A DNA stretch of 64,000 bases from Patescibacteria group bacterium (GTDB taxonomy: Bacteria > Patescibacteriota > Patescibacteriia > UBA9934 > GWF2-40-263), in contig JBAZTR010000001.1 of assembly GCA_041661745.1 (NCBI GenBank), positions 300,306 through 364,305 on the forward strand, given 5' to 3'. Positions 32,552 through 38,535 of this stretch are shown here, piece by piece. The position numbers and the translations under genes are program-made. Numbering within the stretch: the first letter of the stretch is position 1; each line of letters starts with the position of its first letter. The notes under the pieces were generated by a model, which searched no databases, had not been told where the DNA came from, and worked only from the letters and a program-made list of their open reading frames with translations.

Positions 32552-32589
32552 GTGGTTATTTTATCACATTTTATTTGCTAGATGAAGAG

Positions 32590-32640
32590 AAATAAAAAAG
32601 ACGCGCGTTCCACCAGGTGTGTCCTAGTAGTCGCGCGTCG
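32590..32640 (-). terminator. intrinsic terminator of the first island-2 lipoprotein gene
   Basis: Minus-strand read: stem gacgcgcg/cgcgcgtc followed by UUUUUU. Confidence 0.45.
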
Positions 32641-32668
32641 GAAGTGGCCGACCTGCCTTCAGGCCGGT

Positions 32669-34258
32669 CTACTCGCTGCACTCGGCGTCGAGGCCGTCGC
32701 AGTCGTTGTCCACACCGTCTTCGCAGACCTCGGTCATCCCGGGGTTCACGTCGTCGTCGTGGTCGTCGCAGTCGGTGTAGTCCTCGACGTAGTCGGGCCC
32801 TTCGAGCCCGCACGAGATGATGGTGTAGAGGCCGTCGGCCCCGTAGCCATCGAGGTCGCGGTCGAAGTACCAGACGGTGCCGTCCACCGCGCCGTCCTCG
32901 TCCACCTCGCCGTCGCAGTCGTTGTCGACGGTGTCGCAGTACTCGTCCGCGTCCGGGTGGACATCCACGTCCATGTCGTCGCAGTCGGTGCCGCCCACCG
33001 CGTCGGCGTCGTAGCCGTCGCCGTCGACGTCGGTCCAGTCGCTGCCGTCGCAGTCCTGGTCCTCGCCGTCGTAGGGGGCTTCGCCGGCCCCCGGGTAGAC
33101 GATGGCCGAGGTGTCGTCGCAGTCGACGGCCGTGGAGTACCCGTCCCCGTCGTAGTCGGGGTACAGGCAGACCGGGTCGGCCGTGTCGACATGGCCGTCG
33201 CAGTCGTTGTCGATGCCGTCGTCGCAGCGCTCGGCCTCGTCTGGGTTGGCGTCGGCGTTCTCGTCGTCGCAGTCGGTGTGGTCCACCACCCGTCCCGCGA
33301 TGACCTCGCAGGAGTAGATGAAGTCGGTGCTGTCGCCGAAGCCGTCCCAGTCAGCGTCCGCGTACCAGTACACGAAGAACACGGCGTCGTCGACGAGACC
33401 GTTGCAGTCGTCGTCCGAGCTGTTGCAGCGCTCGGTGGCGCCCGGGTGGACGCTCGAGTCCGTGTCGTCGCAGTCGGTGGTGTTGTCGACGTAGCCATCC
33501 GGGGCCTCGCAGACCTGGATGGTCTCGAGACCGTTGCCGTGGCCGTCGCCATCGGCGTCGGCGTAGAACGTCACGGTGACGTCCTCGTCCACCTCGCCGT
33601 CGCAGTCGTTGTCGATGCCGTCGCAGACCTCCGGGTTGCCCGGGAAGCTGCTGGCCTCGACATCGTCGCAGTCGGTGGTGTTGTCGACGTAGCCATCCGG
33701 GGCCTCGCAGGCCTCGGTGATCTTGAGACCGTTGCCGTAGCCGTCACCGTCCGCGTCCATGTAGAACACGTCCTGGACGTCCTCGTCCACGCCGTCGTTG
33801 CAGTCGTCGTCCACGCCGTTGCACTCCTCGTGCGCGTTGGGGTGGACGGCAGGGTTGCCGTCGTCGCAATCCCCGCACTCGAGGTTGTAGTGGCGCGGGA
33901 TGTCGTCTCCGTGGTGGATGACGACGACATCGTCGGGCGTGCCGTAGCCGTCGACGTCGCCGTCGAAGCACCAGGTCTCCTCCTTCGGCTCGCCGGTGTC
34001 GATGACGATCTCGCCGGTGTCGATGATCTCGGTGTCGTCGTCGCAGACGTCGCCGGTGCCATCGCCATCCATGTCGGACTGGCCGGCGTTGGCGTTCTGG
34101 GGGCAGTTGTCCCCGTCGTTGTCGACGCCGTCGCCGTCCATGTCGACCCAGCAGCCCGCGAGGGCCATGAGGAAGAGGGTCACGAGGAACAGGGGGATCC
34201 AGCGCATGAGAACCTCCGCATTGGGGGGGGGTGGAACCACGTCAGGTTTCCGTGGCAT
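32669..34258 (-). CDS. high-GC lipoprotein with thrombospondin-type-3-like Ca-binding repeats and MopE-type Cys-rich repeats
   Basis: Probable start MRWIPLFLVTLFLMALAGC (lipobox) with GGAGG 6 nt upstream, near 34207. It contains DMDGDGVDNDGDNCPQNANAGQSDMDGDGTGDVCDDD (a TSP3-like repeat) and repeated CDDxDxxVHPGAxExCDGIDNDCDGxVDED units. GC3 is very high. Confidence 0.7.
   Translation of the reverse strand: MPRKPDVVPPPPNAEVLMRWIPLFLVTLFLMALAGCWVDMDGDGVDNDGDNCPQNANAGQSDMDGDGTGDVCDDDTEIIDTGEIVIDTGEPKEETWCFDGDVDGYGTPDDVVVIHHGDDIPRHYNLECGDCDDGNPAVHPNAHEECNGVDDDCNDGVDEDVQDVFYMDADGDGYGNGLKITEACEAPDGYVDNTTDCDDVEASSFPGNPEVCDGIDNDCDGEVDEDVTVTFYADADGDGHGNGLETIQVCEAPDGYVDNTTDCDDTDSSVHPGATERCNSSDDDCNGLVDDAVFFVYWYADADWDGFGDSTDFIYSCEVIAGRVVDHTDCDDENADANPDEAERCDDGIDNDCDGHVDTADPVCLYPDYDGDGYSTAVDCDDTSAIVYPGAGEAPYDGEDQDCDGSDWTDVDGDGYDADAVGGTDCDDMDVDVHPDADEYCDTVDNDCDGEVDEDGAVDGTVWYFDRDLDGYGADGLYTIISCGLEGPDYVEDYTDCDDHDDDVNPGMTEVCEDGVDNDCDGLDAECSE
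34222..34233. repeat. poly-G (8-9) homopolymer tract in the 5' region of the island lipoprotein gene
   Basis: attgggggggggtgg lies just upstream of the GGAGG RBS. This is a candidate slipped-strand site. Confidence 0.5.
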
Positions 34259-34467
34259 TGGGGTGAAGGATCTATATCAACCTGTTTTTAACTCTTTTAA
34301 GCTAAAAAGGATCAAAAACAGATTGAAATTTTCAACGCCATATTTCAACATTTTTTAAAGCTTTTGTCAATATCTAGTGAGGATATTTTAACAAAAACAA
34401 TAGACCTCCGATCGCGTCCCACCCAGAGGGGGTAGAACACGTCGGAGGTCTGAGGCTCCCCTGCTAG

Positions 34468-36666: not shown

Positions 36667-36701
36667 GGGAATCTCCACGAAAGCGGCCCGAATCGGGCCA
36701 T

Positions 36702-36709
36702 GGGGGGGG
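36702..36709. repeat. poly-G8 tract ~40 nt upstream of the lipoprotein start, preceded by a ggcccgaatcgggcc hairpin
   Basis: ccatggggggggtgtcagg. It is the same arrangement as at the neighbouring island gene. Confidence 0.5.
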
Positions 36710-36918
36710 TGTCAGGGAACGATGAGACTGGGGCTTTCCCCTGGTCTCGATGAACGGTTCACCGAGACGCTGTAGGGTTGAACCACAGTGCTCGGGGCGT
36801 ACATTCAACTAAGTTGAAGATACATCCTGAAAACTATGATTGATAGATTAAGTTGAATAATCTGGGGACGGCAGGCGTATCGCTACGCGTGCCGCCCCAG
36901 ACAGAGTTGTTGTCCCTC

Positions 36919-38298
36919 CTAGTAGGCGAAGACCAGCCCGCCCTGGACGAAGGTCATCCCCGCCCCGTCGATGTCCTGCCCGGTGGCGGACAGGACGGAC
37001 CGGACGCCCGTCCCGACCTTGAACCCGCCGGTGAGGGCGAGGCCGTTGGTCAGGAGGTAGGAGGCGTAGGCACCTCCGTGGATGCCGTAGCCCTCGACCT
37101 CGCCCTCGCGGCCGACCACGCCGGTGGAGGCGTAATAGCCGCCGACGGTCGCCCCGATGCCCAGGCGATCCCAGTCGTATCCGACCGTGGGGCCAGCCAG
37201 GAAGCGGACGCCGCGCTCGGACGGGACCCAGCCGCCGACCACCTCGACTCCGGCGTTGAGGCCGTTGTCGAAGGGGTGGCCGTGGAGGCTGGTGGAGACG
37301 GCCGGGGCGATGAAGCTGCCCGATCGGAGCTCCTGCCCGTCGGCGTCGACCACGGGGGTCTGCACGCCGGCGATGAGGGCCGCACCGACCGTGCCACCGA
37401 GATGGCTGGAGGTGTGGGTGTCGAGCTTGTCGGAGACGGCCTTGGCCTCGGCCTTGGCGCCGTCGGCCGCGGACTTGGCCTCGCCGATCTCCGCGTCCTG
37501 CTCACGCTCGATCCGGACGAGCTCGGCGCGGAACTGATCCTCTTCCGACTTGTGGGCCGCGACGGCTGCGTCCCGCTCGGTGCGGTACTGCAGCCAGGCC
37601 GCGCCGTCGGCGTCGCCGTTGGCTTCGATGGCACGCTGCAACTCGGCGTCACGGGCGGTGAAGCCGGTGTGCGCCTCGGTGTCCGCTTCCGTGTGGGTCT
37701 GGAGCGCGGCGGCGTTGTCGGCCGCGGCCTTGCGGGCGCGGGCGTCGTAGCCGCCGGACCCCGCGCCGCCGTGGATGGCGTCACAGGTTCCTTCCCACTT
37801 GTGGGTCTGGTCGTTGCGGTAGATCCGCCAGACGAACCCGACCCCGAACTGGGAATCGGCGGCGCTTTCCTTCTCCGTGCAGTTGCAGACGCCGCGGTAG
37901 ACGATCCAGGTGTGGCCGAGACCTTCGCAGGCCTCGATCTGGTCGCGCGCCTTGACGAACACGGGGGACGCCGGGTCGGCCTGGGCGGGCATGAGCCCGA
38001 TGGTCCAGGCGGCCTTGTCGGCCGAGGTCGGGGTGGGGACGGTGGGCGCGACAGGGGAGACGAACTTGTTGGTGTCGTCCGGCTCCATGCCAGCGCACTC
38101 GGCGAACGACTTCATCCCGCTGGGGCGGGCGACGGCGTTCACGGCACTCGACTCGAGGCAGTAGCCGTCGGCGTCCTTGTCCTGGTACCACCATCCCTGG
38201 TGGGGGTTGGCGGGCGGGGGGACGGGCGTGCCGGTGGCGGCGGTGGCGACGAACGGGAACACGATGGCCGCGATTGCGGCGAAGACGATGGACCGCAT
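36919..38298 (-). CDS. high-GC secreted protein: Cys-containing N-domain, central coiled coil, Gly-rich C-terminal beta-rich domain ending ...GGLVFAY (outer-membrane-barrel-like)
   Basis: Signal peptide MRSIVFAAIAAIVFPFVATAATG with AGGAGG RBS 7 nt upstream. The C-terminal ~140 aa alternates Gly/aromatic residues and ends in an aromatic residue. Confidence 0.55.
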   Translation of the reverse strand: MRSIVFAAIAAIVFPFVATAATGTPVPPPANPHQGWWYQDKDADGYCLESSAVNAVARPSGMKSFAECAGMEPDDTNKFVSPVAPTVPTPTSADKAAWTIGLMPAQADPASPVFVKARDQIEACEGLGHTWIVYRGVCNCTEKESAADSQFGVGFVWRIYRNDQTHKWEGTCDAIHGGAGSGGYDARARKAAADNAAALQTHTEADTEAHTGFTARDAELQRAIEANGDADGAAWLQYRTERDAAVAAHKSEEDQFRAELVRIEREQDAEIGEAKSAADGAKAEAKAVSDKLDTHTSSHLGGTVGAALIAGVQTPVVDADGQELRSGSFIAPAVSTSLHGHPFDNGLNAGVEVVGGWVPSERGVRFLAGPTVGYDWDRLGIGATVGGYYASTGVVGREGEVEGYGIHGGAYASYLLTNGLALTGGFKVGTGVRSVLSATGQDIDGAGMTFVQGGLVFAY

Positions 38299-38535
38299 GG
38301 TGTGGTCCTCCTGTGGTGCTGCGGGTTGTTGTTGCCCCGGAGGGGGCTAGAAGCCACTCCGGGGCGGAATGGCAGATTTGATAGAACAACTACAGGCGCA
38401 ATAGGATCGCGCACTGGAAAGGCTTGGCATCGGCTTTCACTACGAGGAGGAGACGCAGTGAAAGGATGTCTAGCCGTTCCGGGGCACGAGTTGTTTTTTT
38501 AAGTGACGTTTGGGCTCTATAGGCTTTTTTGTCTA

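Follow-up and report, generated by a model that had tools for sequence, protein, structure and literature searches.

A cluster of four secreted-protein genes with extreme third-position GC content is probably native to an Uhrbacteria-like Patescibacteria bacterium

The window described here is a stretch of 64,000 nucleotides from a Patescibacteria group bacterium (GenBank assembly GCA_041661745.1, contig JBAZTR010000001.1, positions 300,306 to 364,305 of the forward strand), and all coordinates below are positions within it unless another contig is named. Its minus strand carries a cluster, or island, of four consecutive genes for secreted proteins, g1 to g4, in which the GC content at third codon positions (GC3) is far above that of the surrounding genes. 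The cluster lies directly upstream of the genes for a Wzy_C-domain membrane protein and a GT4 glycosyltransferase, and in other Uhrbacteria also directly downstream of a Wzz-like gene. Here we present a summary of the features of this island, together with a comparison with related loci of the candidate phyla radiation (CPR), from which we consider the cluster to be probably native and not acquired. The four genes and their two downstream partners are the following.

32669..34207, minus strand: g1, 512 amino acids; lipobox LAGC, one thrombospondin type-3 repeat and seven MopE units, each after a DxDxDGYG loop; GC3 0.94
34468..35559, minus strand: g2, 363 amino acids; starts like a lipoprotein (..TLWGC) and continues with an (Asp-Thr/Ser)n stalk about 150 residues long; a Cys-rich module containing a single MopE-like unit precedes the C-terminal domain (about 110 amino acids); GC3 0.85
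35896..36666, minus strand: g3, 256 amino acids; starts like a lipoprotein (..LVNAC), with a short linker of Asp-Thr/Ser, a single MopE unit and a C-terminal domain (about 130 amino acids); GC3 0.99
36919..38298, minus strand: g4, 459 amino acids; Sec-type signal peptide, DxDxDGY/Cys motif (degenerate MopE), Cys-containing domain, helix, Gly/aromatic C-terminus; GC3 0.93
31013-32551, minus strand: Wzy_C-domain membrane protein, a conserved downstream partner with backbone composition; PF04932 at 45.7 bits against a gathering score of 31.7
29809-31035, minus strand: GT4 glycosyltransferase (Pfam), a conserved downstream partner with backbone composition

Calculated per kb, the GC content rises from about 0.44 to 0.60-0.72 on entering the segment at 33-38 kb, most other 1-kb windows having 0.40-0.50 (15-18 kb and 43-44 kb also reach about 0.6). 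The GC3 values of the minus-strand open reading frames (ORFs) are 0.94 (32669-34258), 0.85 (34468-35559), 0.99 (35896-36666) and 0.93 (36919-38298), as against 0.35-0.50 in about 40 background ORFs of the window. These values bear out the figure of about 90% given in an initial annotation of this DNA, which was made from the letters alone; codon usage uniform with that of the neighbours, an outcome for which the same annotation had allowed, was not found. Every 20-codon block of the island ORFs, from start to stop, has a GC3 of 0.70-1.00. Most codons end in C (C at 0.70 and G at 0.23 of the third positions), with CTC preferred over CTG, GTC over GTG and ACC strongly over ACG. About 60 nt on either side of each ORF are moderately GC-rich, the upstream flank covering the ribosome-binding region and the downstream flank a terminator-like hairpin, and within about 60-120 nt outside each ORF the GC content is down to 0.25-0.32. 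The initial annotation was thus right that the foreign-looking composition is confined to the ORFs, and its description of the spacers as AT-rich holds for their cores but not for whole spacers, which have a GC content of 0.44-0.55. That confinement, which it had brought forward in support of acquisition, argues against a recent transfer.

Since a GC3 close to 1 places G or C at nearly every first position of the antisense frame, stop codons are missing there, and long antisense ORFs of 569, 340, 288 and 549 amino acids lie opposite the four genes, three of them with 0.88-0.91 GC at first codon positions. The coding strand is the minus strand, as judged from the MopE repeats in g1 and g3 (Pfam), the signal peptides on all four proteins and the existence of homologues. 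A public gene call in ENA (L083:11251-17171, corresponding to about 32582-38502 of the window) has the wrong strand for all four genes, with ORFs of 569, 340, 288 and 537 amino acids. Regarding the start of g1, the ATG at 34207 is preceded by GGAGG and yields 512 amino acids, as annotated by NCBI, whereas an upstream ATG at 34258 would yield 529 amino acids. Exact-sequence look-ups of both forms of g1 returned no match, although an identical 512-amino-acid protein exists at NCBI (P0002, labeled 'putative metal-binding motif-containing protein [Patescibacteria group bacterium]'); antisense gene calls may be the cause of these failed look-ups and also of the orphan appearance of g4 in searches of protein databases.

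Signal peptides are present in all four translations, in agreement with the secreted and lipoprotein products first proposed, and the acidic Asp-Thr/Ser linkers are likewise visible there. The thrombospondin type-3 (T3) and MopE repeats were also recovered: Pfam family PF11617 (gathering score 27) matches seven times in g1 (183.7 bits) and once in g3 (32.5 bits), and the N-terminus of g1 (residues 18-59) matches the solved T3 repeats of COMP (3fby, E 1.7e-13) and TSP-2 (E 4e-12). PF02412 is precomputed for the NCBI protein identical to g1; the Pfam scan of the window at E <= 0.01 did not report it. A weak match (E 1e-4) connects g1 with the solved MopE N-terminal region (2vov). In a protein search g1 retrieved thousands of MopE proteins with 34-49% identity; their sources include Myxococcota and Bacteroidota, and Candidatus Uhrbacteria and Patescibacteria are likewise among them. 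The best non-self match has 42-49% identity and is driven by the repeats. No Pfam match was obtained for g2, and its stalk scored 58.5 bits (cut-off 2500) against the Ser-Asp repeat regions of the NCBIfam MSCRAMM Sdr/Clf models, a match of the repeat region alone that is driven by composition. All three lipoboxes initially assigned (LAGC, LWGC, VNAC) are present, but only LAGC fits the usual rule [LVI][ASTVI][GAS]C: under it, LAGC of g1 and MAGC of a 985-amino-acid protein encoded elsewhere in the window conform, whereas LWGC of g2 and VNAC of g3 deviate at position -2 (W and N). In the cluster orthologues the lipoboxes are canonical (LAGC, LVAC or VGAC). The translations show no LPXTG motif at the C-termini of the island proteins, and genes for Lgt and LspA were not found in the 64-kb window.

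The g4 protein belongs to a small family, with about 15 full-length representatives among 1.84 billion proteins, and its three named members all come from Patescibacteria/Uhrbacteria, i.e., from the CPR. A homology search with g4 only returned g4 itself, and a profile of eight sequences returned g4 plus one other protein. The window g4 has no Pfam match, whereas 13 of the 16 family members have one; searches of PADLOC, PHROGs and NCBIfam were uninformative for g4 and for the proteins of 401, 187 and 1323 amino acids mentioned below. About 110 residues (186-295) are predicted to be helical and are followed by a Gly/aromatic domain (300-459) with eight predicted long beta strands, ending in QGGLVFAY. 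An AlphaFold2 model built with 16 sequences has a mean predicted local distance difference test score (pLDDT) of 54, with 76-90 in the N-terminal MopE-like module, helices at 186-295 and eight long beta strands at 300-457 (pLDDT 50-69); with an alignment of two sequences the pLDDT was 30.7 and the model unusable. The modelled strands and the Gly/aromatic end are in line with the barrel-like C-terminus suggested at the outset. The C-termini QGGLVFAY (window), QIGIAFVY (L106) and SLGLAFQF (L095) resemble a beta-signal; distant members of the family do not have this motif at the very C-terminus. The C-terminal domain of g4 could, with low confidence and as modelled, be an outer-membrane-like eight-stranded beta-barrel.

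The arrangement of the cluster recurs in other Uhrbacteria. In RIFOXYB2_FULL_57_15 (L086-L088) a 490-amino-acid secreted protein is followed by a 240-amino-acid lipoprotein (acidic linker, single MopE unit), a 444-amino-acid lipoprotein, a 692-amino-acid multi-MopE lipoprotein, Wzy_C and GT4, which is the order g4-g3-g2-g1-Wzy-GT4 of the window; its Wzy_C and GT4 proteins (L087) are 60% and 44% identical, respectively, to those of the window. A second Uhrbacteria contig (L085) contains a similar array of three genes. The wider order common to the window and Uhrbacteria runs AI-2E, PDZ, Wzz ... cluster, Wzy, GT4, DUF11-like, GHL15, HTH_17, ECF sigma, DUF5667 and a protein of about 1300 amino acids. 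The flanking UvrD protein is closest to Candidatus Uhrbacteria metagenome-assembled genomes (57% identity), which agrees with the CPR-like host that had been assumed.

The compositional contrast recurs as well. A metagenome scan anchored on Wzy gave 62 loci, of which 38 (some of them redundant) extend for 1 kb or more upstream of Wzy, as does the window, and the GC content of the 2 kb upstream of Wzy was compared with that of Wzy plus downstream sequence. The upstream segment was richer by more than 5 GC points in 34 of these 39 loci and by more than 10 points in 25; it was poorer by more than 5 points in none. The four loci that show no contrast all have backbones already very rich in GC (Wzy GC3 0.85-0.93), and in a fifth, with a small contrast of +0.04, the Wzy GC3 is 0.78. 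Across Uhrbacteria the backbone Wzy GC3 ranges from 0.26 to 0.93, and even in genomes with 57-62% GC the cluster has a GC3 of 0.90-0.95, compared with 0.60-0.80 in its neighbours, and spacers of 286-636 bp with lower GC. Values for individual loci, with Wzy identity given relative to the window, are listed here.

L106: Wzy identity 85%; Wzy GC3 0.26; cluster GC3 0.77-0.84
L089: Wzy identity 85%; Wzy GC3 0.39; cluster GC3 0.80
L090: Wzy identity 79%; Wzy GC3 0.36; cluster GC3 0.77
L095: Wzy identity 76%; Wzy GC3 0.45; cluster GC3 0.84-0.89 (four genes of 495, 325, 571 and 1367 amino acids)
L099: Wzy identity 59%; Wzy GC3 0.34; cluster GC3 0.72-0.76
L136: first cluster gene of 476 amino acids; GC3 from 0.41 to 0.57-0.73

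The proteins of the cluster have diverged much further than those of its flanks. Identity between L106 and the window is 83-85% for the flanking enzymes (Wzy_C 85%, GT4 85%) but only 41-49% for g4, g2 and g1; the g3 orthologue in L106 (1245-1886) has an N-terminal motif in common with that of the window (...VACEYPTSTVGD vs ...NACAYPTSKVDG). Identity of g4 to the window is 48% in L106 and 35% in L095, with one weak match (28%, L136) among the further loci, and that of the g2 C-terminal domain is 45% and 41%, respectively, with none in more distant loci. Similarity of both is thus detectable only in the closest relatives with enough upstream DNA, and it drops as Wzy identity drops. As a measure of synonymous divergence, the F81 distance at fourfold sites of conserved residues, window versus L106, is 1.01 substitutions per site for the backbone and 1.12 for the cluster, the GC content at the compared sites (window / L106) being 0.51 / 0.26 for the backbone and 0.93 / 0.73 for the cluster.

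From these comparisons we regard the island as an envelope cluster that is native to an Uhrbacteria-like (Patescibacteria) bacterium and has been inherited vertically, not acquired, with its GC3 held up by a directional force, and we put the probability of this reading at about 0.78. Cluster and backbone have diverged together, by about one substitution per fourfold site, which gives the cluster the same age as its flanks. What is left of an old transfer would by now have shifted toward the composition of the host, and two independent recent imports would not show backbone-like divergence; an un-ameliorated transfer is therefore rejected. With respect to the marks of a genomic island, the cluster has an atypical composition, but mobility signatures, absence in relatives and a close donor were not found (flanking direct repeats were outside this check).

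Several observations weigh against parts of this reading. The orthology of g4 and g3 with L087 and L085 is based on position and architecture, BLAST similarity being lost, and the co-phylogeny comparison has two informative relatives only. A Myxococcota contig with 73% GC has MopE genes with a GC3 of 0.97-0.99, like all its genes, and these are close to the island in third-position C (0.76) and in preferring CTC over CTG and GTC over GTG. Scored with two hidden Markov models of the repeat unit, one for Uhrbacteria and one for non-CPR organisms, the MopE units of the window differed by a mean of -0.35 bits (8 of 19 positive), which does not tell CPR and non-CPR units apart, and the MopE repeat module may have an ancient inter-phylum (Myxococcota-like) origin. 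The surface-coat or adhesin role set out below, with its link to Wzy and GT4, is inferred from domains and gene neighbourhood. Regarding the g4 barrel, Foldseek gave weak matches to the model (best E 0.04), the pLDDT of 50-69 counts on the same side, and no outer-membrane sequence family was found in the 16 family members at E <= 1 (Pfam). (Note that codon usage, i.e., CTC/CTG, GTC/GTG and ACC/ACG, was considered as a separator of the island from Myxococcota and was dropped, as the Myxococcota MopE contig has the same pattern.)

Among the alternatives, serial cassette replacement survives best, although we consider it improbable. It assumes a native locus whose alleles are repeatedly swapped by homologous recombination with high-GC Uhrbacteria, with Wzy and the flanks as anchors, so that low-GC genomes would hold recently imported GC-rich alleles. 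GC-rich donors do exist among Uhrbacteria, as the range of Wzy GC3 (0.26-0.93) indicates, surface-protein loci are classic targets of allele replacement, and the cluster proteins evolve much faster than their flanks (41-49% vs 85% in L106). However, the contrast is one-way, with no locus in which the cluster is clearly GC-poorer than the backbone; the cluster GC3 of 0.90-0.95 exceeds that of the backbone even where the genome has 57-62% GC; g4 and g2 similarity tracks Wzy, and fourfold divergence equals that of the backbone; and the AT-rich spacer cores are host-like, a boundary that imported tracts would not respect.

A recent transfer of the island from a high-GC donor outside the CPR, of the Myxococcota/Bdellovibrionota type, was the first explanation offered by the initial annotation and is now very unlikely. 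The extreme compositional contrast, the abundance of MopE repeats in Myxococcota, the resemblance of island codon usage to that of Myxococcota MopE genes and the resemblance of g4 to an outer-membrane barrel would all suit such an origin. Against it stand the synteny kept across Uhrbacteria, the host-like spacers, the exclusive CPR origin of the named g4-family members, the best non-self g1 match of only 42-49% identity, which is repeat-driven, and the joint divergence of cluster and backbone, in which g4 and g2 similarity tracks the backbone and synonymous divergence equals it. Furthermore, no integrase or transposase family matched among the flanking genes scanned, and the window contains no tRNA, its sole RNA gene being a transfer-messenger RNA (tmRNA; 60995-61401) 22 kb from the island. 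The related statement that such proteins are not of Patescibacteria has to be given up, given the MopE lipoproteins annotated in Uhrbacteria, the g4-g3-g2-g1-Wzy-GT4 order in RIFOXYB2_FULL_57_15 and the same anomaly in many contigs.

Two further genes of the window share the high GC3 and lie outside the island.

15203..18160, minus strand: 985-amino-acid lipoprotein (LFMAGC) with 12 MopE repeats (373.6 bits); GC3 0.77; same anomaly, 14 kb from the island
42692..43897, minus strand: 401-amino-acid protein without signal peptide or family match; GC3 0.79

The gene for the 985-amino-acid lipoprotein adjoins that for a 1323-amino-acid protein without family match and lies downstream of an ECF sigma/DUF5667 pair. 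Three other CPR genomes have a homologue of the 401-amino-acid gene immediately before UvrD (L009:7795-8838, L002:8628-9779 and L003:101-1372; syntenic, upstream of UvrD, 24-27% identity). Its GC3 is raised in all three: to 0.86 at a locus with a GC content of 0.49, to 0.62 at one with 0.43 and to 0.61 at one with 0.46. The GC3 excess is thus not limited to secreted repeat proteins, and three separate GC-rich gene regions, each bounded at ORF ends, argue against a single insertion or a misassembly.

The assembly is reproduced elsewhere. A MEGAHIT contig of 40.8 kb in ENA is 100% identical to the window at 29189-49752, across both island borders and the third GC-rich gene. Logan contigs built from two SRA runs agree with the window at 100% identity, one between 35053 and 38577 and the other between 36325 and 38577. 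Both Logan contigs stop at 38577, which is the edge of a 10-bp-periodic repeat array. A chimeric assembly or an engineered, codon-optimised and transplanted insert, the latter also raised initially, can be dismissed for practical purposes: the GC3 of 0.99 in g3 looks like one-codon-per-residue optimisation and the two Logan contigs share an end, but that break falls at a repeat array present three times in the island spacers, the three GC-rich regions on one contig are separate and bounded at ORF ends, the same sequence crosses both borders in another assembly with parts of it in two separate sequencing runs, and dozens of environmental contigs carry natural, diverged orthologues that share the property.

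Returning to the native cluster, the persistence of its GC3 excess after about one substitution per synonymous site implies that a directional force acts on these genes, and the existence of such a force follows from the data: synonymous sites of the cluster turn over at a normal rate and yet keep landing on G or C. Three causes were considered and set aside. A requirement of amino-acid composition or of the repeats is ruled out by a Bacteroidetes control, a 918-amino-acid MopE gene in a contig with 42% GC whose GC3 is 0.20, like that of its neighbours. Expression-linked codon bias, or translational selection, is unsupported, as ribosomal-protein (S2, L20), EF-Ts and glycolysis genes (GAPDH, enolase, PGK) have an ordinary GC3 of 0.41-0.50. 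Under transcription-linked deamination of cytosine the coding strand should be poorer in C, whereas third positions have 0.70 C and 0.23 G.

The remaining candidates are, in order of preference and with none of them shown, selection on the transcript or its decoding, GC-biased gene conversion and the serial allele replacement discussed above. Selection on the transcript (mRNA stability, structure or decoding) would keep the cluster codons G/C-ending, and would fit boundaries that are sharp and centred on the ORFs, proximal leaders rich in GC at all four genes and the strong folding of the g4 leader (38290-38520, z -6.3). GC-biased gene conversion would go with a diversifying locus that recombines often; the rapid evolution of the proteins and the single direction of the contrast fit it, whereas the AT-rich spacer cores are not obviously explained.

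The spacers contain the following promoter-like sites and hairpins.

38672..38700, minus strand: sigma-70-like promoter upstream of g4, TTGACA-17-TACATT with TG; implied leader of about 370 nt; consensus match only
38410..38490, minus strand: stable hairpin in the g4 leader, with loop UCUCCUCCU, anti-Shine-Dalgarno-like; motif CGTCTCCTCCTCGT at 38442-38455
36861..36903, minus strand: GC-rich hairpin directly 3' of the g4 stop, TCTGGGGCGGC...GCCGTCCCCAGA; read from the sequence
35685..35713, minus strand: sigma-70-like promoter upstream of g2, TTGACA-17-TATTAT with TG; consensus match only
34391..34452, minus strand: terminator-like hairpin directly 3' of the g2 stop, AGACCTCCGA...TCGGAGGTCT, then a T-run; read from the sequence

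Ribosome-binding sites of the GGAGG or GGAG type precede the ATG of all four genes. A promoter scan of the spacers found five promoter-like sites, compared with 1.3 expected from shuffles, with strong matches for g4 and g2 alone; of the host-style TTGACA/-10 promoters and GGAGG-type ribosome-binding sites claimed for the spacers, the latter are confirmed at all four genes and strong promoters before g4 and g2 only. A second stable hairpin at about 38820-38925 (minus strand, z -5.9) carries the same loop UCUCCUCCU in an identical CGTCTCCTCCTCGT motif, with a promoter-like TTGACG-17-TAACTT upstream and a U-run downstream, and may be a small RNA of about 100 nt. Rfam has no family for the two hairpins with this loop; at gathering thresholds the window yields the tmRNA alone. 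Arrays of a repeat with a period of about 10 bp (TTAA[A/C/G]GCCC-like, minus strand) lie at 35745-35800, 38565-38650, 39025-39088 and 11218-11251; they were not found in related loci of other genomes.

Genes of backbone composition in the window include those for S2, L20, EF-Ts, GAPDH, PGK, enolase, tmRNA and SmpB, several GT4 and GT2 glycosyltransferases, a Wzz-like protein, and an ECF sigma factor with a DUF5667 protein. The island is flanked by the Wzy_C and GT4 genes and by genes for a conserved 187-amino-acid protein and UvrD. The product of 31013-32551 is a member of the Wzy_C (O-antigen ligase/polymerase-like) family, and on its sequence a polymerase, a ligase or a protein O-glycosyltransferase would all fit. 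A housekeeping block of about 17 kb (39.2-54.8 kb; 39189-54835) separates the Wzz-like gene (55549-56190) from the cluster in this genome and holds genes for the 187-amino-acid protein, UvrD, an sCache protein, the 401-amino-acid protein, YceG, a nucleotidyl transferase, PAP2, iPGM, enolase, PGK, a phosphoesterase, GAPDH, EF-Ts and S2. In RIFOXYB2_FULL_57_15 the Wzz gene is directly before the cluster, which points to a rearrangement with its junction in the 890-bp spacer 38299-39188 of the window. Moderately raised GC (0.53-0.58) without a convincing annotated gene is seen at 52627-53377, 54836-55548 and 63287-63868; one of these stretches has a possible 125-amino-acid acidic ORF (52865-53242, plus strand) and another a 193-amino-acid ORF without family match. 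The tmRNA (60995-61401, minus strand) encodes an unusually long tag peptide, ANANIFSQVKNTFAKAFAVPSFVSVVA (ARAGORN), and the adjacent SmpB gene (61482-62273, minus strand) has an N-terminal extension of about 120 residues.

As for function, several features point to a surface coat or adhesin layer: the cluster keeps a fixed place by Wzz-like and Wzy_C/GT4 genes, and its products carry putative lipid anchors, acidic stalks and modules rich in disulfides. Each cluster gene has its own ribosome-binding site and terminator-like hairpin. In the proposed scheme, the products of g1 to g3 would be membrane-anchored lipoproteins whose acidic Asp-Thr/Ser stalks hold out disulfide-rich modules (T3 repeat, MopE repeats and small C-terminal tip domains), which are likely to bind Ca2+ as judged from their motifs; the Ser/Thr-rich stalks may be glycosylated. 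The g4 protein would be secreted, with a MopE-like head, a long helical stalk and a beta-barrel-like C-terminal anchor. Together the four proteins would form an outer, host- or phage-facing coat or adhesin layer that acts with a Wzy-dependent surface glycan, and they would evolve fast under diversifying pressure; their fast sequence evolution fits exposure to hosts or phages.

Several known systems resemble parts of this scheme. MopE (PF11617) proteins, abundant in Myxococcota and Bacteroidota, are secreted and share the CDD..PGA.E.CDG.DNDCDG repeat after DxDxDGYG loops in tandem units of about 66 amino acids; unlike in other MopE proteins, the island repeats stand in CPR lipoproteins encoded by a fixed four-gene array beside Wzy and GT4, and in contrast to the Bacteroidetes MopE gene their coding sequence has a locus-specific GC3 excess. 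With the T3 repeats of thrombospondins (COMP, TSP-1, TSP-2; PDB 3fby, 1yo8, 1ux6), g1 residues 19-57 can be aligned, including DxDxDGxxDxxDNCP, but in place of the animal T3 wire g1 has a single unit straight after the lipobox Cys of a bacterial lipoprotein. Staphylococcal MSCRAMM adhesins (SdrC/D, ClfA/B) likewise hold a binding domain off the cell on a long acidic dipeptide-repeat stalk and have adjacent GT4 genes, SdgA and SdgB being the GT4 glycosyltransferases of the Sdr/Clf adhesins; the island proteins differ in scores far under the cut-offs and due to composition, in a lipobox instead of LPXTG, and in Asp-Thr/Asp-Ser repeats. The g4 model was compared with the small eight-stranded barrels NspA, OmpA/OprF N-domain, OmpW and PagL, at a model pLDDT of 50-69 and with no sequence-family match. 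Outer-membrane tethers such as OmpM and SlpA are built as head, coiled coil and barrel (PMC10628300, PMC9388160), g4 differing from them in the lack of an SLH domain. Finally, the cluster shares with composition-detected genomic islands the sharp compositional deviation of a multi-gene block, and differs from acquired islands in its lack of mobility genes and a tRNA site, its conserved syntenic place, its host-like spacers and its divergence along with its flanks.

A joint reading, which is tentative and on balance doubtful, takes two things together. In its first part, a process delimited by gene or transcript, of a kind not described for bacteria, would hold a small set of fast-evolving Uhrbacteria genes (the surface cluster, another MopE lipoprotein and the cytoplasmic 401-amino-acid protein) at near-saturated G/C-ending codons, against the mutational drift of the genome. 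In its second part, g4 would be a genuine membrane beta-barrel carried by a coiled-coil stalk, in a presumably single-membrane lineage, inserting as an anchor in an unrecognised outer layer of the CPR cell or in the outer membrane of the host. Patescibacteria have been proposed to be without an outer membrane (PMC12102498). A literature search found no description of GC-rich surface genes in the CPR.

A native, lineage-wide locus at extreme GC3, one of whose products is a CPR-specific protein that may form a membrane barrel, would be more unusual than a transfer; the barrel is an unproven lead. The native reading means that a textbook-looking compositional island belongs to its own genome, so that composition-based detection of foreign DNA fails here, and GC3 outliers in CPR genomes call for a check of synteny before a transfer is proposed. 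Protein databases probably lack some of the surface proteins of the CPR. With a GC3 of 0.85-0.99 in a genome of 44% GC, and with synonymous sites that have been replaced between lineages, the locus is a clean natural test case for synonymous or transcript selection versus biased gene conversion in bacteria. The cluster provides lineage-wide candidates for the host-contact surface of Uhrbacteria, and the possible barrel anchor of g4 bears on the envelope architecture of the CPR and on the attachment of epibionts.

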